Assembly: GCF_900232105.1 (NCBI RefSeq)
Contig: NZ_LT934425.1
Location: 2,790,001-2,822,000 of the forward strand
DNA length: 32,000 bases
Origin: Candidatus Kuenenia stuttgartensis
GTDB taxonomy: Bacteria; Planctomycetota; Brocadiia; Brocadiales; Brocadiaceae
Direction: 5' to 3'
Under the pieces are notes generated by a model. That model was not told where the DNA came from, did no database searches, and saw nothing but the letters and a program-made list of their open reading frames with translations. Position 1 is the first letter of the stretch, and the number at the start of each line of letters is the position of its first letter. The position numbers and the translations under genes are program-made. Shown here in pieces: positions 1,890 through 16,247 of this stretch.

Positions 1890-1924
1890 TTCTATAGGAA
1901 TCAAAAGAAAGGCAGAGGGATTCA

Positions 1925-3031
1925 ATGAAAGCCATTGCAGTTGTACCGGGTCGGCCAGATTCATTGCATATACGGGAGATACCCAAACCAATGGTGACTG
2001 ATGTCCCTGATGGAAGAGGTGTTCTGGTAAAGGTGCTGAGAGTGGGCGTTGACGGGACAGATAAAGAAATTAATGCCGCAGAGTATGGTACTGCGCCACC
2101 CGGAGATGATTTTCTCATTATTGGTCATGAGTCTTTTGGCATTGTCGAAGATGTGGGCTCTCATGTGAGTGGTCTGAAGGCCGGTGATTATGTTGTGGCA
2201 ACGGTCAGACGTCCTGGAACTTCCCTATATGATAAAATCGGGACGTACGACATGACTACAGACGATGTCTATTATGAACGGGGAATCAATCTGAGACATG
2301 GGTATATGACTGAGTATTATGTGGATGAACCGGAATATATCGTTAAAGTTCCACCGGGGTTAAAAGAGGTAGGCGTACTTCTGGAACCTACCAGTGTGAT
2401 CGAAAAGGGGATAGCTCAGGCGTATGAAATCCAGCGACGGTTAAGGGTGTGGCGTCCCAAGCGGGCCGCTGTGCTCGGTGCCGGTACTATCGGATTGCAG
2501 GCAACTCTGGCGCTGCGTCTTCGCGGATTGCAGGTTTGTGCTTTCGGACGGACCAAACCACCTTACTTAAACTCTCAGCTTTTGAATCAAATAGGTGCAT
2601 GCTATCATAGTCTTCAGGATGTTACTTTAACGGAATCTTTCGGAGATCATGGCCCTTTTGATCTCATTCTCGAAGCGACGGGCTATTCACCGCTTGTATT
2701 TGAAGCGATGAACATCCTGGGGAAGAATGGTGTTCTTGTTCTTTCCAGTGTGACAGGCGGCGGGAGATCTGTTGAGATACCATCTGATAAAATTAACATG
2801 GGATTTGTTCTGGGCAATAAGGTTGTTGTTGGTACAGTGAATGCAAATCGGGAGTATTTTGAATTAGGTGTTAAAGACTTTTCTCTGGCTGAAATGCAAT
2901 GGCCTGGATGGCTGTCGAAATTGTTAACCCATCAGATCGGAGGTCTTGAAAACTATCAGGATATTATCCCCATTCTAACGAAGGCGAAAAATGTGATTAA
3001 GGTTTTTGTTCAAGTTGCAGACACGCAATAG
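1925..3031 (+). CDS. Zn-dependent medium-chain dehydrogenase, glucose 1-dehydrogenase-like
   Basis: 368-aa ORF. The N-terminus (MKAIAV...[13 protein letters not shown]...GHESFG) and a GAGTIG Rossmann motif resemble archaeal-type glucose dehydrogenases of the MDR family. It sits 36 nt downstream of the glycoside hydrolase. Confidence 0.7.
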
Positions 3032-3109
3032 TTTAATTTTCTGGCTATCGCCCATAATATGCCTCTTCAGTAATAGGGCCGCAATTTTGATATGCGTTTG
3101 TTTCTAAGA

Positions 3110-3232
3110 CTTTAGCTTTTTGAAAATTATGTTTCGGTTTAGTTTTGGGTGGCACGGACAAACACAGCTTGTCTGTGCCACCCATGTTGAGCGATAATAG
3201 ATGCATCAATTTCCAAAAATCTAAAGTGTTAC
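3110..3232. mobile_element. MITE family A, copy 1 (123 bp)
   Basis: The terminal inverted repeats are CTTTAGCTTTTTGAAAAT (left) and ATTTCCAAAAATCTAAAG followed by GTGTTAC (right). The central hairpin is GGGTGGCACGGACAA-acacagc-TTGTCTGTGCCACCC. A second copy lies at 4995-5195. Confidence 0.8.
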
Positions 3233-3366
3233 TAAAATTTTTATTTTGTTGGAATAAATCATGATTATTGCTTGTCATTAAAAGCGTAAGAACAAAATTA
3301 TTTTACAGATACTTTATTAAAAAGCAGGGAGTGGATATGGCCCAAAGCCACTCATAAGTCGATTGG

Positions 3367-3632
3367 GTGATGAGTGAGGAGGAAGGACTCAGGCAGGCCA
3401 AAGCAAGTAGTAAGATAGCGATGATTGATTTTTATGCGTCGTGGTGCGCAGCCTGTATGGAGTTGTTGGTTTGCCTACTATCGTGTTTGTTAATAAGGAC
3501 GGAACTGTGGTCAAAGATAAAACTATTGCCGGTTTTGTCAATTCTAAGGAATTTCTGAGTATCATAAAAAGCCTGGAGTGGCGTAAAATAAAGCGCCATG
3601 CAAATTATTTTATAGCGCCAGGTACTGAATAA
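3367..3632 (+). pseudogene. Remnant of a DsbD-type C-terminal thioredoxin domain (internal deletion plus frameshift, N-terminal domains missing)
   Basis: Frame 1 reads EEGLRQAKASSKIAMIDFYASWCAAC (CxxC site). The frame then switches at about 3445 to LYGVVGLPTIVFVNKDGTVVKDKTIAGFVNSKEFL. The roughly 35-40 aa normally between these motifs are absent, and a stop lies immediately upstream at 3356-3358. Confidence 0.5.
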
Positions 3633-3652
3633 CGCGCTATATCAAGAGTGTT

Positions 3653-4999
3653 ATGGAAGCAAAAATGAAGATAAAGAAAACAATAATAATTTTTATGCCC
3701 ATAGTCTTAATCCTTATTGTGCTGGCTGGAGGAGGTATCTGGTTTAAAAGGAAATATGCCACCTCGGTTAATATGGATATTCATCTCAAAGAATATTCTC
3801 AATTTGAATATCCCGAAGATCCTGCAAATCGCAGTGTTCATTATGCGCAGTATTCAAACAGGAATTTGAAAATTGTGAAAAAAGATAAAACCCATTTCGA
3901 TCTGATTTTGGAACCAACAAATGATCATACGGCAAAAGTTGTATTTAATGATATTGACGCAGGTCTTTTTGTAACAGGCCTGCCGGAATGGACAAAAAAG
4001 GATAAAGATTTAGAGATTATTGCCCTGACCGATAGGGAATGGAACAGGCAGCAGGTAAGTTTTGAGCCAGATTCAAAACACATTGAAATTACCGGTGGTG
4101 ATGGATTTGAAAAAAGCAATTTGCATTCAGCCGCAATTGCTAAGAATTGTTTAAATGCCGGTCTTTGGGAAATTTTATTGTTTACGAAAGAAAAAGAGGA
4201 AAAGGCCTTATATTATCAAGGATGGTTTACGTTCCCCCTTGGACACTATAAAGCTGTATTTGAGGAAATCACCGGCCTGTCGTATTGGGAGCACTGGCGA
4301 AGATTGGAACATTGGGTAGACCCTGCTGGCGCCTCTATCAATTTAAAAGCCCTCAGAAAAGTTTTAAATGAGAGAGAGGTACAGGCTGAATTCCTGGCAC
4401 AAGAGCGTATTTTTGCATCGGGTGAACAGGTAAGAAAGCTCAGAACTACAAATGTGCAGAACGTTATCACCTGGAAGGATTTTTGTGGTAGTTCGGTTGA
4501 ATTTGCGACCTTTGCCCCGCCAGGCAGGTACTATGTTGAAAAACCCTGGAAGAATGAGTATTGGAGGATTGCAGAGTTCAAAAAAGCGATACTAAGGGAC
4601 ATTCAATCACCAGCATCGGAAGAAGTCTTACAGGAAATAGAGCTGGTTTTTAAAGATTCCAAAACTGGCGAAGAGAATAGATTTTTTGTCAGCGGATTCA
4701 AGCTGAACCAACTTCCTCAGCTTCCTGTTGAACATTACCCACAGGGGTTATACATGCCCATGGGAATCGGGGTTCCGCCTTTCTTCTTAAGCTATCAAGA
4801 CCTGGAACGGAATCCACCCGATAAGAGCCCTTATTTCAGTGTACTTCTGGATTCAAATGACACATGGATTAATCACCACGAGGTGGCTATCGACGGGCCG
4901 GTTCTTCACAGAGATATTAATAATCCGAATGTAATCCATGTTTATTTGCTTTCTTACGAACGCCATAGTCTGGTCGGTCATTACCTTCTGAAGATTTAA
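3653..4999 (+). CDS. Hypothetical protein with an N-terminal membrane anchor (448 aa); no family recognised
   Basis: Long uninterrupted ORF with an N-terminal hydrophobic helix (IIIFMPIVLILIVLAGGGIW). The stop codon lies inside the left arm of MITE A copy 2. Confidence 0.65.
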   Translation: MEAKMKIKKTIIIFMPIVLILIVLAGGGIWFKRKYATSVNMDIHLKEYSQFEYPEDPANRSVHYAQYSNRNLKIVKKDKTHFDLILEPTNDHTAKVVFNDIDAGLFVTGLPEWTKKDKDLEIIALTDREWNRQQVSFEPDSKHIEITGGDGFEKSNLHSAAIAKNCLNAGLWEILLFTKEKEEKALYYQGWFTFPLGHYKAVFEEITGLSYWEHWRRLEHWVDPAGASINLKALRKVLNEREVQAEFLAQERIFASGEQVRKLRTTNVQNVITWKDFCGSSVEFATFAPPGRYYVEKPWKNEYWRIAEFKKAILRDIQSPASEEVLQEIELVFKDSKTGEENRFFVSGFKLNQLPQLPVEHYPQGLYMPMGIGVPPFFLSYQDLERNPPDKSPYFSVLLDSNDTWINHHEVAIDGPVLHRDINNPNVIHVYLLSYERHSLVGHYLLKI

Positions 5000-5195
5000 C
5001 TTTTTGAAAATATGTTGCAGTTTAGTTTTGGGTGGCACGGACAAGCTGTGCTTGTCCGTGATCGCGCGCAAATAGGTTTAGTGTAGAGACGCAAAATCTT
5101 GCGTCTCTACACCCCACATGGACAAACAGAGTTTATCCGGCCACCCATGTTGAGCGATAATATCTGCATCAATTTCCAAATATCTAAAGTGTTAC
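4995..5195. mobile_element. MITE family A, copy 2 (201 bp) with a nested GTAG-type REP hairpin
   Basis: It has the same arms as 3110-3232. The core is duplicated and interrupted by GTGTAGAGACGCAA-aatc-TTGCGTCTCTACAC (about 5080-5111). Confidence 0.8.
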
Positions 5196-5261
5196 AAAGG
5201 AAGAAATAATACTTATGGATGCCTGTCCGTTGCAATTTGTTGAAAATAAGGGAGCGTTAGC

Positions 5262-5714
5262 ATGAAGAGGACACTTTTCATTATCTTATTATTCACTATA
5301 GCTATTATATTTGTCGGATATTATGCATTAAAGGCAAATATACAAAACAAGAAATTTGCTATCATTCTTCAAGCAGGTAAAGAGACTCACGAAGGAATGG
5401 TTCGTGCTACGCATGCTTTACTATATGCCACAGAATTAAAAGGGAAGGGCTATGAGGTAGTTTTGATTTTCGACGGTGCAGGAACGGTGTGGGCAGAAGA
5501 GGTGTCAAATCCTGATTCACAAAGCAAACTCTTACCAATGTATAATGCTATAAAAAAGGCGGGAATTCATGAGATTGTATGTGATTTTTGCGCTCATGCT
5601 TTTGGGGTAAAGGAAGAGCTCCAGACCCGACAATGCCCCCTCCTATCGGAATATAATGGCCATCCGAGTATTGAAAAATTGGCGGGAAAAGGCTATCAAC
5701 TTATTGTGTTGTGA
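5262..5714 (+). CDS. DsrE/DsrF-like family protein with an N-terminal TM/signal-anchor helix
   Basis: 150 aa. After the hydrophobic N-terminus, the pattern AIILQAGKETHEG..RATHALLYA..L...G.EV.LIFDGAG...VC.FCA.AFGV fits the DsrE-like fold, from memory. Confidence 0.6.
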   Translation: MKRTLFIILLFTIAIIFVGYYALKANIQNKKFAIILQAGKETHEGMVRATHALLYATELKGKGYEVVLIFDGAGTVWAEEVSNPDSQSKLLPMYNAIKKAGIHEIVCDFCAHAFGVKEELQTRQCPLLSEYNGHPSIEKLAGKGYQLIVL

Positions 5715-5770: not shown

Positions 5771-6442
5771 ATGAAAGTACTTGGGATCAGTGGCAGTCCG
5801 AGAGCTGGTAAAACAACAGAGAGCCTGGTGATGGCCATTTTGGATGCAACTGGCTTAGAAACGGAATTCATATCCTTACACGGCAAGAAAATTAACGGTT
5901 GTATATGCTGTTTAGGTTGCGTGGAAGACAACCTCTGTAAAGTACAGGATGATTATCTCCCAATCATGCACAAAGTTATGGAGGCAGATGCGATTATTAT
6001 CGGTGCTGCAAATTATTTTGGCAGACTGAATGCCCTTACGCACGCCCTTCTTGAACGATTTTACTGCTTTAGACACGATAGTAACGGACACGGCGGCATG
6101 AAACTCTCCGGTAAATTGGGTGCAATTGCCTCTGTGGGCGGTGGTGGAAACTGGAAGATGCCGGGGAAGGATATTAAAATGAGCGAGGTTGCAGGAGATG
6201 ATATTAAAGGCTTTTTTGCATACAATGAGATTGAACTTGTTGGCGCTGTAAAGGCACAGGGGCCTGTGGCATGTTTTACCTGTGGATACGGAGAAACTTG
6301 CAACGTAAGCGGCATAAAGAAATTCTTTGGTAAGGATACCAAAATCACCCCGGACATTATACCATGTTTAGAAAAGCAGCCCGAAGTCATAGAGAAGGCA
6401 AGGGCACTTGGAAAGGCATTGGGAGAAAGATTGAAAAAATAA
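5771..6442 (+). CDS. Iron-sulfur flavoprotein (Isf-like NADPH-dependent FMN reductase/flavodoxin family)
   Basis: It starts MKVLGISGSPR. The compact cysteine motif C-x2-C-x2-C-x5-C (CICCLGCVEDNLC) matches the Isf [4Fe-4S] motif. Confidence 0.75.
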   Translation: MKVLGISGSPRAGKTTESLVMAILDATGLETEFISLHGKKINGCICCLGCVEDNLCKVQDDYLPIMHKVMEADAIIIGAANYFGRLNALTHALLERFYCFRHDSNGHGGMKLSGKLGAIASVGGGGNWKMPGKDIKMSEVAGDDIKGFFAYNEIELVGAVKAQGPVACFTCGYGETCNVSGIKKFFGKDTKITPDIIPCLEKQPEVIEKARALGKALGERLKK

Positions 6443-6443
6443 A

Positions 6444-6670
6444 ATGGAACATAATGTAATTTTACAATCGGTAATTACCTGTCCAAATTGTGGACATCAG
6501 AAAAAGGAAACAATGCCTACTGATGCCTGTCAATATTTCTACGAATGTGAAATTGCAAATCAAGATTAAAACCCAAAAAAGGGCATTGTTGCGTGTTCTG
6601 TTCTTATGGAACAGTTCAATGTCCATCAATACAAATACAACAAAAAAGAGGCCACAGTCCTCTACGTTGA
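6444..6670 (+). pseudogene. GDCCVxC-type small cysteine-rich (metal-binding) protein, disrupted by a -1 frameshift
   Basis: Frame A (6444-6569) reads MEHNVILQSVITCPNCGHQKKETMPTDACQYFYECEIANQD*. Frame B from 6554 reads CKSRLKPKKGHCCVFCSYGTVQCPSIQ. One extra T in the ATT|GC run at about 6552-6554 would join them as ...YECEICKSRLKPKKGHCCVFC. Confidence 0.6.
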
Positions 6671-6745
6671 TGTCAACGACTTTGAGGAGCAAAGGGATGC
6701 CTTTGATGCCGCGTGGGAGCTTGGAGTAAGGAATGAGAGGCAAAT

Positions 6746-6883
6746 GTAGGGTGGATGAAGCGAAGCGCATCCACCATTTCTCAGGAAGGCGGGAAATGAC
6801 AGGAAAATTACCGCTTTTCTGTGTTCCTGATATTAAATCTGGTGGATACGGCGTGAAAAGGCGCACGCCTTTATCCACCCTAC
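6746..6883 (+). repeat. REPIN (inverted REP doublet), copy 1
   Basis: The 5' REP is GTAGG-GTGGATG-aagcgaagcg-CATCCACC. The spacer carries TCAGGAA...TTCCTGA pairing. The 3' inverted REP is GGTGGATAcGGCGTG-aaaaggcg-CACGCCttTATCCACC-CTAC. Confidence 0.85.
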
Positions 6884-7024
6884 CCAAAACAAAAATAATG
6901 TCCATCAATACAAATACAACAAAAAAGAGACCACAGTCCTCTACGTTGATGTCAACGACTTTGAGGAGCAAAGGGATGCCTTTGATGCCGCGTGGGGGCC
7001 TGGAGAAAGGAATGAGAGGCAAAT

Positions 7025-7162
7025 GTAGGGTGGATGAAGCGAAGCGCATCCACCATTTCTCAGGAAGGCAGGAAATGACAGGAAAATTCCCGCTTTTCTG
7101 TGTTCCTGATATTAAATCTGGTGGATACGGCGTGAAAAGGCGCACGCCTTTATCCACCCTAC
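7025..7162 (+). repeat. REPIN (inverted REP doublet), copy 2
   Basis: Same architecture as 6746-6883, offset by 279 bp. Confidence 0.85.
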
Positions 7163-7187
7163 CCAAAACAAAAATAAGGGAATATCC

Positions 7188-7637
7188 ATGAGCGAATATC
7201 GCCGGCTCTATCGTGAACAAGGCTGGTATTTCTTTACGATTGTGACATACAATCGACAAAAAATTCTTACCCATCCTGATAACGTTACCAGATTACGACG
7301 TTCGTTCCAATATGCGATGAATAAACACACCTTTTTTATCGATGCTATTGTTGTTCTTCCTGATCATATTCACTGTATCTGGAGGTTGCCTCATGACGAT
7401 GATGATTTCTCAACACGATGGAGATTGGTTAAATGGCATTTTTCTTTGGGCATGGATACCCTCTTGACCGAAAGAGGTGAGAAGAAGGTATGGCAAAGGA
7501 GATTTTGGGAACATTTGTTGAGGAATGAAAAAGATTGGCGCTATGGGTCATTTCATGATGCTGTAAAGAGGGGATTCTATACCATAGATTGGGGTTCGCA
7601 AGAACCTGATTCCATAAAGGAAATGGATTTAGAGTAG
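7188..7637 (+). CDS. rayT: REP-associated tyrosine transposase (RAYT / TnpA_REP, IS200-like Y1 HUH family), unusually short
   Basis: The N-terminus MSEYRRLYREQGWYFFT, the HUH region VVLPDHIHCIW, and LPHDDDDFSTRWR and VWQRRFWEH..RNEKDW closely follow my recollection of E. coli TnpA_REP (YafM). The gene is flanked by GTAG-headed REPs on both sides. Confidence 0.85.
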   Translation: MSEYRRLYREQGWYFFTIVTYNRQKILTHPDNVTRLRRSFQYAMNKHTFFIDAIVVLPDHIHCIWRLPHDDDDFSTRWRLVKWHFSLGMDTLLTERGEKKVWQRRFWEHLLRNEKDWRYGSFHDAVKRGFYTIDWGSQEPDSIKEMDLE

Positions 7638-7663
7638 GATGGATGAAGCGAAGCGCATCCACC
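7634..7663 (+). repeat. REP (GTAGGATGGATG-aagcgaagcg-CATCCACC) overlapping the RAYT stop codon
   Basis: It is the same palindrome as the 5' REP of the upstream REPINs, in the same orientation. The TAG stop (7635-7637) lies inside the GTAG head. Confidence 0.85.
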
Positions 7664-7752
7664 ATAGTTTATCTCTGCCTAATCCCCTTCATACATAGTT
7701 GTTTTTTCAGAAAACTAAATTGCTATGAAATTTTTTATAGAGAGGCTGGATA

Positions 7753-8283
7753 ATGGCACGGATTTTGGCTAGAGAAAAAGAAGAAACGTCGATGGACGTA
7801 CAGGAGGTTTTTGCAGAAATTGAAGGTGCTTTTGGCATGGTTCCAAATTTGTTTAAGACCTACTCGCATTTTCCACCTTTATTGAAAGCCAACTGGAACA
7901 AGGTAAAGGCGGTAATGATGCAAGGGGGTTTGAGTAGAAAAACAAAGGAAGCTATTGCCCTTCTGGTTTCAAAGGACAATAGCTGCGCATATTGTGTGGC
8001 TGCTCACACGGCTGCCCTCAAATCCATCGGTGTGACGGAAAAAGAAATTAACATAATTGAGAGTGAGATTGAGAAATCAAAATTTACAGAGAAGGAACGA
8101 GAAATCATAACCTTTGTCAGGAAGGCGAACAAAGACCCAAATAAGATAACTGATGAAGAATTTGAAGAGCTAAGGAAGAGGGGCGCTAGTGATTCGGAAA
8201 TTGTTGAGGCACTTGGTGTAATGGAACTCTTTACAGCATTTAATAAATTCCTCGATTCTCTTAACGTGGAGATAGATTTCTGA
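7753..8283 (+). CDS. Carboxymuconolactone decarboxylase (AhpD-like) family protein
   Basis: 176 aa. The core LSRKTKEAIALLVSKDNSCAYCVAAH carries the AhpD-type CxxC. Its stop overlaps the next start (TGATG). Confidence 0.8.
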   Translation: MARILAREKEETSMDVQEVFAEIEGAFGMVPNLFKTYSHFPPLLKANWNKVKAVMMQGGLSRKTKEAIALLVSKDNSCAYCVAAHTAALKSIGVTEKEINIIESEIEKSKFTEKEREIITFVRKANKDPNKITDEEFEELRKRGASDSEIVEALGVMELFTAFNKFLDSLNVEIDF

Positions 8284-16216: not shown

Positions 16217-16247
16217 GTAGGGTGCATTAAGCGATAGCGAATCCACC
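16217..16247 (+). repeat. Degenerate REP of the RAYT-associated family
   Basis: GTAGGGTGCATTaagcgatagcgAATCCACC; compare 6746-6775 and 7634-7663. Confidence 0.6.

Follow-up and report, generated by a model that had tools for sequence, protein, structure and literature searches.

The closest described relative of the system treated here is the REPtron of Escherichia coli K-12, in which a REP-associated tyrosine transposase (RAYT) goes together with repetitive extragenic palindromic (REP) sequences. It pairs RayT (rayT = yafM, also named TnpA_REP, structure 4er8) with the Y and Z2 REPs, and it belongs to group 2 of the RAYTs (Bertels et al. 2017; Corneloup et al. 2021). In strain MG1655, a Y REP on the plus strand is followed by an inverted Z2 REP on the minus strand, by rayT and by more REPs. 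The E. coli enzyme contacts the GTAG head and the bulge of the REP (PMC8266576), and its Y115F form is a catalytic mutant (Corneloup et al., PMC8266576). The loss or frameshift of a RAYT, followed by the decay of the REP doublets forming hairpins (REPINs), has been described in E. coli, Pseudomonas chlororaphis and Neisseria gonorrhoeae, and a published model predicts that this decay is slow (bioRxiv 10.1101/2021.07.10.451892).

Here, we examine a locus of this kind in Candidatus Kuenenia stuttgartensis, within a stretch of 32,000 nucleotides that we call the window (positions 2,790,001-2,822,000 of the 4,406,153-bp gap-free single-contig genome NZ_LT934425.1; GC 41.1%). An earlier note, made from the sequence alone, had pointed to a RAYT gene flanked by REPs and by a tandem duplication. 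The plan of the locus is common to E. coli and Kuenenia, with a REP(+), an inverted REP(-) of a second type, the RAYT(+) and one or several further REPs, although the Kuenenia host, unlike E. coli, is a planctomycete with a GC content of 41%. We consider it probable, at roughly 80%, that this is an E. coli-type REPtron whose RAYT has been disabled by a 69-bp deletion, whose REPs are a relic and in which the host, in an event apart from these, produced a 279-bp tandem duplication. Our literature search returned no mention of Kuenenia together with REP, RAYT or REPIN.

The RAYT gene and its missing segment

The gene and the trace of its deletion lie as follows:
7188..7637, plus strand: RAYT (TnpA_REP), deletion allele, 149 aa, N-terminus MSEYRR; identified by REP_Tyr_transpos, 4er8 and the family alignment
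7529..7539, plus strand: deletion scar, the sole kept copy of AAAAGATTGGC; from the DNA alignment with locus L009, the BLAST segments overlapping here

The NCBIfam profile NF047646 (REP_Tyr_transpos) recognizes the protein with 129.7 bits for a cut-off of 80, over positions 1-121 of its 146, and the Pfam Y1_Tnp match covers 6-98 of 121. Alignment with PDB entry 4er8, the E. coli TnpA_REP (E = 2e-29), takes in residues 1-112 and 127-155 and skips the stretch in between. The HUH motif is kept, as H60-I61-H62 in VVLPDHIHCIW aligns with H-M-H in E. coli, H60 being invariant and H62 nearly invariant in the family. What is missing, unlike in E. coli, is the helix that carries the equivalent of Y115: the window RAYT is without 23 residues, DWQRHMDYIHHNPVKHRYVQNPK, among them this tyrosine. 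In a 54-sequence family alignment, this segment is kept in all 53 other members, and its nearly invariant columns H-x-D-Y-I-H-Y-N-P-V-K-H-G are absent only in the window allele. Homologues in a large protein collection are almost all 172 aa long; the closest of them, P0002 (172 aa), is 99% identical outside the 23-residue gap. A full-length allele aligns with 4er8 from end to end, and its D-Y is then paired with D114-Y115 of E. coli.

The DNA alignment with L009 gives the cause of the gap, a 69-bp in-frame deletion between 11-bp direct repeats: AAAAGATTGGC is present twice in the intact alleles, 69 bp apart, and once in the window. Such a pattern reads as the classic signature of slippage or recombination between short direct repeats. 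The earlier note had treated the RAYT as a working gene, which does not stand now that the catalytic tyrosine segment proves to be missing. Judged from its sequence, the window gene is a RAYT by descent and not a functional member of the family, and from the missing tyrosine and the inactivity of E. coli Y115F we infer that the 149-aa protein would be unable to cleave or join DNA. With the family alignment as input, AlphaFold models the HUH core (residues 10-110) confidently, at a pLDDT of 84-95, and leaves the part past the deletion junction uncertain (57-71); the best structural match found by Foldseek is 4er8.

The window genome holds one gene of this RAYT subfamily. The remaining matches in the genome are weak ones to Y1, or else belong to another type, 177 aa long, that goes with a repeat family of its own. 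We considered whether RAYT-like genes elsewhere could act in trans and rejected them, the best being 177 aa long, with 31% identity over just 71 residues of the intact allele, and going with an unrelated palindrome family. These 177-aa genes, at genome positions 1410354 and 1411259 (loci L002 and L003), have intact HUH and YIHCNP motifs and sit outside the window in a 905-bp tandem duplication (genome 1410354-1411714), surrounded by a palindrome family GTTCCCAAGC..GCTTGGGAAC and by short tandem repeats. Matches resembling Y1 transposases number 20 genome-wide.

REP hairpins at the locus and in the genome

Five REPs flank the gene, namely two of a short type (REP_A), two of a long type (REP_B) and one downstream variant (REP_A'):
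6746..6775, plus strand: REP_A, short type, copy 1 (GTAGGGTGGATGAAGCGAAGCGCATCCACC); fold -8.6 kcal/mol, z = -4.6
6841..6883, minus strand: REP_B, long type, inverted, copy 1 (GTAGGGTGGATAAAGGCGTGCGCCTTTTCACGCCGTATCCACC on the minus strand); fold -14.1 kcal/mol, z = -6.0
7025..7054, plus strand: REP_A (GTAGGGTGGATGAAGCGAAGCGCATCCACC), copy 2; from the pattern search
7120..7162, minus strand: REP_B, copy 2, ending 25 nt 5' of the RAYT start codon; from the sequence search
7634..7663, plus strand: REP_A' (GTAGGATGGATGAAGCGAAGCGCATCCACC), with one stem mismatch; fold -5.7 kcal/mol, z = -2.8

Both types have a GTAG head, an 8-bp lower stem and an AA/G internal loop, on top of which REP_A carries a GCGAAGC mini-hairpin and REP_B a 6-bp upper stem, GGCGTG/CACGCC. 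The number of REP_A matches expected by chance is 0. Upstream of the gene, the REPs are arranged in two REPINs of 138 bp each (6746-6883 and 7025-7162), in which a 65-nt spacer pairs with itself through TCAGGAA/TTCCTGA, a structured spacer that sets them apart from E. coli. Folded as single-stranded DNA, the 138-nt REPIN reaches -32 kcal/mol (z = -6.6), which confirms the earlier description of a GTAG-headed REP, a pairing spacer and an inverted REP. The two REPINs described there 5' of the RAYT and the single REP 3' of it were also correct, including the fact that the TAG stop (7635-7637) falls inside the GTAG head of REP_A' (7634-7637).

The exact flanking REP sequences were not found elsewhere in a search of the whole genome. 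A hairpin-aware search of the genome recovers 23 REPs, the 5 of the locus and 18 dispersed ones, spread from 0.25 to 3.74 Mb. The dispersed REPs form a related subtype with a T:A closing pair, GGTGGATT...AATCCACC, several with stem mismatches, and all 18 lie outside the open reading frames (ORFs) of at least 150 aa, which make up 72% of the genome. Three of the places where they occur (genome 1428617, 2282325 and 2361111) hold complete A(+)/B(-) doublets with spacers of 15-18 nt, so that the definition of a REPIN as an inverted doublet that is also dispersed in the genome applies to the doublets of the locus as well as to these three. The earlier note had proposed to count the REP family genome-wide and to see whether it clusters near the gene. 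The family proves dispersed and extragenic; its members show no concentration near the RAYT, and no other place in the genome has the exact flanking sequences. One dispersed REP lies in the window:
16217..16247, plus strand: singlet REP of the genome-wide subtype (GTAGGGTGCATTAAGCGATAGCGAATCCACC), with a stem mismatch, 8.5 kb downstream of the RAYT

The same REP family is found in 12 of the 15 other Brocadiaceae genomes searched, and exact-pattern REPs are more numerous in several of them (52 in G001, 53 in G008, 27 in G009 and 31 in G015, versus 13 in the window genome), with many identical doublets. G009 and G015 carry full-length RAYTs, 70-72% identical to that of Kuenenia and flanked by this REP family. 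Together with the anammox metagenome-assembled genome (MAG) H5_AMX3, they share with the window the REP family (GTAGGGTGGAT...ATCCACC), its short and long types in doublets and RAYTs that are 59-72% identical; in H5_AMX3, too, the GTAG head of a REP_A, identical to that of the window, contains the stop codon of the RAYT. The RAYTs of these three relatives are of full length (at least 172 aa), unlike the window allele, and their genomes hold 27-53 exact-pattern REPs. Unlike in Kuenenia, neither FMN reductase nor CMD genes lie within 1.5 kb of these RAYTs. Indeed, the neighbours of the RAYT are not conserved between Brocadiaceae genera over this distance, which makes them uninformative about a vertical or a horizontal history. 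G001, of the same genus as the window genome and assembled in 190 contigs, has its 52 REPs and many identical doublets but gave no RAYT of the subfamily at E <= 1e-20; the gene is either unassembled or lost. From these sequence comparisons, the REP system appears to be old in anammox bacteria and small in the window genome, where about 23 REPs compare with an average, for group 2 RAYTs, of 57 occurrences of the most frequent flanking 16-mer. As for the 18 dispersed REPs, they are best seen as relics to which no new copies are added, and the link between the deletion and the small size of this population is only suggestive.

History of the deletion and of the duplication

The RAYT locus is found at the same place in about 30 contigs or genomes, between the FMN reductase and CMD genes. 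Deletion alleles encode four protein variants on more than 200 contigs, and their ORF is open in all the assemblies seen. There are six full-length variants, one of which, WP_164995508.1, belongs to the complete genome CP049055.1. P0002 and P0126 are 172-aa intact alleles at this same locus, the latter being named REP-associated tyrosine transposase of Ca. Kuenenia stuttgartiensis and lying in CP049055.1. All deletion alleles have one haplotype in common from about 7089 to beyond 8100, to which the nearest intact allele is that of L122, and the other intact alleles form a haplotype distinct from this deletion/L122 block. Because the block is identical in all deletion alleles, the 69-bp deletion appears, from the sequences at hand, to have arisen once and recently. 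A recurrent origin was hinted at by upstream unit haplotypes common to both alleles, and the single block from about 7089 rules it out. On the upstream side of about 7020, at least four different unit haplotypes go with the one deletion allele, and there has therefore been repeated recombination in or next to the REPIN.

The breakpoints of the strain haplotypes fall between 7018 and 7089 in the window, in the REPIN proximal to the RAYT, which may be a preferred end-point of recombination, or this may be due to chance. Among the intact alleles, P0002 (loci L009-L016) has a Leu in place of a nearly invariant Pro just before the HUH motif (VVLLDHIH), and the I61V and I61A variants of the deletion allele strike the middle HUH residue. 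These substitutions may be hints of a relaxed constraint in Kuenenia.

The duplication consists of two units:
6618..6896, plus strand: 279-bp tandem unit, copy 1; haplotype of the single-copy unit of CP049055.1 (L118)
6897..7175, plus strand: 279-bp tandem unit, copy 2; haplotype of the single-copy L019/L122 with a private A at unit position 33

Tandem Repeats Finder reports a single array at 6618-7177, with a period of 279, 2.0 copies, 97% matches and zero indels, in agreement with the roughly 97% identity noted earlier. By direct count, the copies differ at 6 positions in 279 bp (unit positions 33, 100, 103, 109, 173 and 192), none of which falls within a REP hairpin. The earlier note had called the duplication young from this identity, which is not a valid clock here, since five of the six differences are alleles segregating in single-copy strains; the divergence between the copies thus reflects imported alleles and recombination, not age. 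The window has two units, and so do GCA_022180985.1, which is identical to it, and GCA_023384235.1, which has a different pattern of single-nucleotide polymorphisms (SNPs); the loci besides the window are L021 and L018. The comparison across strains proposed earlier therefore bears the duplication out, with the same junction in three independent assemblies. Another 17 loci, among them that of the outgroup lineage L009 (96% identical), have a single unit. In GCA_023384235.1, the copies differ at unit position 33 only. Since the private A of copy 2 at this position is common to all three duplicated assemblies, the sequences argue for a single origin of the duplication.

Compared with L118, the window has 1 mismatch in 1231 bp to the left of the junction and 18 in 2498 to the right; compared with L122, it has 12 in 813 to the left, and 1 in 643 and 2 in 2498 to the right. 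By these counts, the junction is a mosaic, with a left side similar to L118 and a right side similar to L019 and L122. The junction itself (...CAAAAAT/AATGTCC..., the slash marking the joint) is set 13 bp past the CTAC tail, away from any REP cleavage site, and its microhomology amounts to 2-3 bp (AA/AAT). As a sequence, it fits replication slippage or illegitimate recombination rather than RAYT chemistry. The duplication is seen only in a subset of the strains that carry the deletion allele and, because it is found on these chromosomes only, it is most likely later than the inactivation of the RAYT, an order that rests on parsimony.

Around the locus, the genes follow one another as FMN reductase, a small Cys-rich gene, the REPIN, the RAYT, a CMD-family gene and a PHO4 transporter. 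Directly 5' of the locus lies:
6446..6670, plus strand: small Cys-rich gene (GDCCVxCSYG-like); from the alignment with L009 and L017

The last 50 nt or so of this gene fall within the duplicated unit. The gene is frameshifted in the window, one A having been lost from a run near 6548-6552; L009 and L017 keep this A and thereby an intact 75-aa ORF, in which no Pfam family scores above cut-off. The frameshift is present in the window, L020, L021, L023 and L118, the 75-aa form in L009, L017, L019, L022 and L024. Because several assemblies have it in common, the frameshift is a real polymorphism and not a private sequencing error. Just upstream of the locus, L118 (CP049055.1, with an intact RAYT) lacks about 3.7 kb of the window (~1900-5667) and has a thioredoxin gene instead. 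This strain-specific indel corresponds to ORFs of 368 and 448 aa and to a DsrE-like gene. An Rfam scan of 6000-8200 gave two chance-level matches only (E = 0.2-0.4), far below the gathering scores, and a promoter and terminator scan of 6300-7900 found sites no commoner than in shuffled sequence, with none upstream of the RAYT. A 47-aa ORF (6606-6748), which is annotated in some assemblies and ends in the TAG of a GTAG head, has no Pfam match; in our view, it arises incidentally from the REP head. Most probably, the ORFs annotated over the REPINs, of 47, 59 and 152 aa, are spurious.

Origin of the REPs, alternative readings and significance

The comparison with E. coli used the REPs that actually flank rayT in MG1655. 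The architecture is the same in both species, with a GTAGG head, a lower stem of 7-8 bp, an AA-versus-G(C) loop and a GGCG upper stem, and the lower stem reads GGTGGAT in Kuenenia versus GCCGGAT in E. coli. REP_B matches the E. coli Y REP at 29 of 35 positions, a score reached by none of 5000 random hairpins (GTAG-headed, with the same architecture and GC content); for REP_A against the E. coli REP, 16 of 5000 score as high. The likeness noticed earlier is thus well above the background of GC-rich palindromes. The intact Kuenenia allele is 45% identical to E. coli RayT over its full length. Both start with MSEYRR, as the earlier note had seen; N-termini of this kind are a family-wide trait. 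Likewise, in a set of 80 loci that spans many phyla, related RAYTs are adjoined by REPs with a GTAGG head, a 7-8 bp lower stem, a GCG/GGCG upper stem and an internal loop of the AA/G, purine-A kind. The sequence of the stem tracks the RAYT subclades in these loci: GGTGGAT is found in the clade of the window, in Gallionellaceae and in Rhodanobacteraceae, GGTTGGGTT in cyanobacteria and Poribacteria, and GGATGGGCA in Chromatiaceae and Methylococcaceae. An identical 30-nt REP_A even adjoins the RAYTs of a Smithellaceae MAG (51% protein identity) and of H5_AMX3 (59%). At these two loci, L027 and L031, the DNA hairpin is better conserved than the enzyme that reads it.

In the RAYT tree, the window protein groups with that of H5_AMX3 (SH-aLRT 98), then with Syntrophobacterales, Smithellaceae and Gammaproteobacteria, and E. 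coli RayT is nested in the same family, in a different subclade. The phyla are mixed in this tree, a pattern that old transfers could produce. The features are probably those of group 2, with the AA/G loop in both REP types and E. coli RayT in the same tree, this tree being without a group 3 reference sequence. The earlier note had left a choice between horizontal acquisition and protein-DNA co-constraint to explain the E. coli-like REPs. Co-constraint, which fits the published contacts of the enzyme with the GTAG head and the bulge, is the better of the two, and the family-wide REP features speak for it. The enterobacterial link does not hold, given the 45% identity and the different subclade. 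A recent acquisition of the RAYT/REP pair from Enterobacteria or a close relative could indeed draw on the 29 matches out of 35 between REP_B and the Y REP, on the shared MSEYRR and on the patchy distribution of the family over phyla, which implies transfers at some depth. It is nevertheless hardly credible: the nearest relatives are from anammox bacteria, Syntrophobacterales and Smithellaceae, the N-terminus and the GTAGG-headed bulged REPs are common to the family, and the acquisition was not recent, because the same REPs and RAYTs that are 70-72% identical occur in several other Brocadiaceae genera.

The reading that we favour can be described as a series of steps. The locus would be a REPtron of the group 2 type, in which a single-copy RAYT goes with its recognition hairpins, a bacterial interspersed mosaic element or REPIN (short and long REP) lying upstream and a single REP downstream. 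By analogy with E. coli TnpA_REP, the enzyme of working relatives would bind the folded single-stranded REP through its GTAG head and bulged stem, and its tyrosine nucleophile would cleave nearby DNA, so that REP doublets could spread into intergenic DNA. In Kuenenia, the deletion between the AAAAGATTGGC repeats would have removed 23 codons including the HxDYIHYNPVKHG nucleophile segment (E. coli Y115). It would have arisen once, on a haplotype closest to the intact L122, and it would now be widespread beside the 172-aa alleles. The dispersed REP family, no longer replenished, would then be a decaying relic. The 279-bp duplication would be a separate host-mediated event, after which homologous recombination would have brought different population alleles into the copies.

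The nature of the duplication could be questioned in two ways. It could be an assembly expansion of a single-copy region, since most short-read assemblies have a single copy. This is very improbable, because three independent assemblies carry the same junction, the two besides the window being GCA_022180985.1 and GCA_023384235.1; moreover, the window genome is a gap-free single contig of 4.4 Mb, and the copies can be told apart by their 6 SNPs, the A of copy 2 at position 33 being common to the three assemblies. The single-copy contigs L019 and L023 match the pattern expected from the collapse of two copies, so that an artefact would more likely go in the opposite direction. The RAYT itself could also have made the duplication, by copying a REPIN out and pasting it in beside the gene: a whole REPIN has been duplicated directly next to the RAYT, and REP clusters near RAYT genes are known for some REPtrons (PMC8266576). 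We find this quite unlikely, as the copy is strictly head-to-tail and extends to sequence other than REPs (128 bp) and to the 3' end of the upstream gene, 13 bp separate the CTAC tail from the junction with its 2-3 bp of microhomology, and the duplication goes only with the tyrosine-less allele in a genome that has no second RAYT of the subfamily. The fate of the protein is another matter. The 149-aa form may have been kept as a non-catalytic REP-binding protein, a regulator or a structural binder of DNA or mRNA hairpins. In its favour are the deletion being exactly in frame, the ORF that stays open through four variants on over 200 contigs, the confident HUH core with 4er8 as its top structural match, and the fact that beta1, the surroundings of beta4 and the C-terminal tail, which hold part of the residues contacting GTAG in E. 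coli (PMC8266576), are regions that the 149-aa protein has kept. This role seems unlikely to us all the same, since the identical haplotype block makes the deletion alleles young, and an open frame is then expected even without selection; I61V and I61A strike the middle of the HUH motif, and the region after the junction is poorly modelled.

Several points weigh against the disabled REPtron with relic REPs that we favour. The inactivity of the 149-aa protein is deduced from the missing tyrosine, and the order of deletion then duplication from parsimony over recombining haplotypes. The open frame on more than 200 contigs, in four variants, would also fit a retained non-catalytic role. The number of REPs does not follow the RAYT cleanly, as G001 has 52 REPs with no RAYT match and G002 and G003 have few REPs. 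Finally, the deletion is recent by its identical haplotype block, whereas REPIN decay is thought to be very slow, so the REP population may already have been small before the deletion.

Among the described cases, the locus is comparable to the frameshifted group 2 RAYT of N. gonorrhoeae and to the RAYT-less E. coli and P. chlororaphis, in that one lineage is disabled and its sisters are intact. In N. gonorrhoeae too, a disabled, vertically inherited RAYT goes with a small, degenerate REP population. Unlike the frameshift in that species, the event in Kuenenia cut out precisely the catalytic segment and kept the frame, so that a 149-aa ORF stays open. Also unlike N. gonorrhoeae, intact and dead alleles co-occur within one Kuenenia species, where a shrinkage of the REPs driven by the deletion is only suggestive. 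It is a speculative thought, and in our view a doubtful one, that Kuenenia populations, with intact and catalytic-helix-less alleles on near-identical haplotypes, either retain the latter as a REP-hairpin binder or offer in the pair a natural knock-out.

The mechanism itself being already known, the general interest of the locus is modest. For annotation purposes, this RAYT is to be flagged as a catalytically defective allele. For the family, the locus adds anammox Planctomycetes to the range of the E. coli-type RAYT/REPIN system, and the occurrence of the same or nearly the same REP hairpin with this RAYT family across very distant phyla is useful evidence for co-constraint. For Kuenenia, having intact and deletion alleles within one species gives a clean natural contrast that bears on the published proposal of REPIN decay after the loss of the RAYT.

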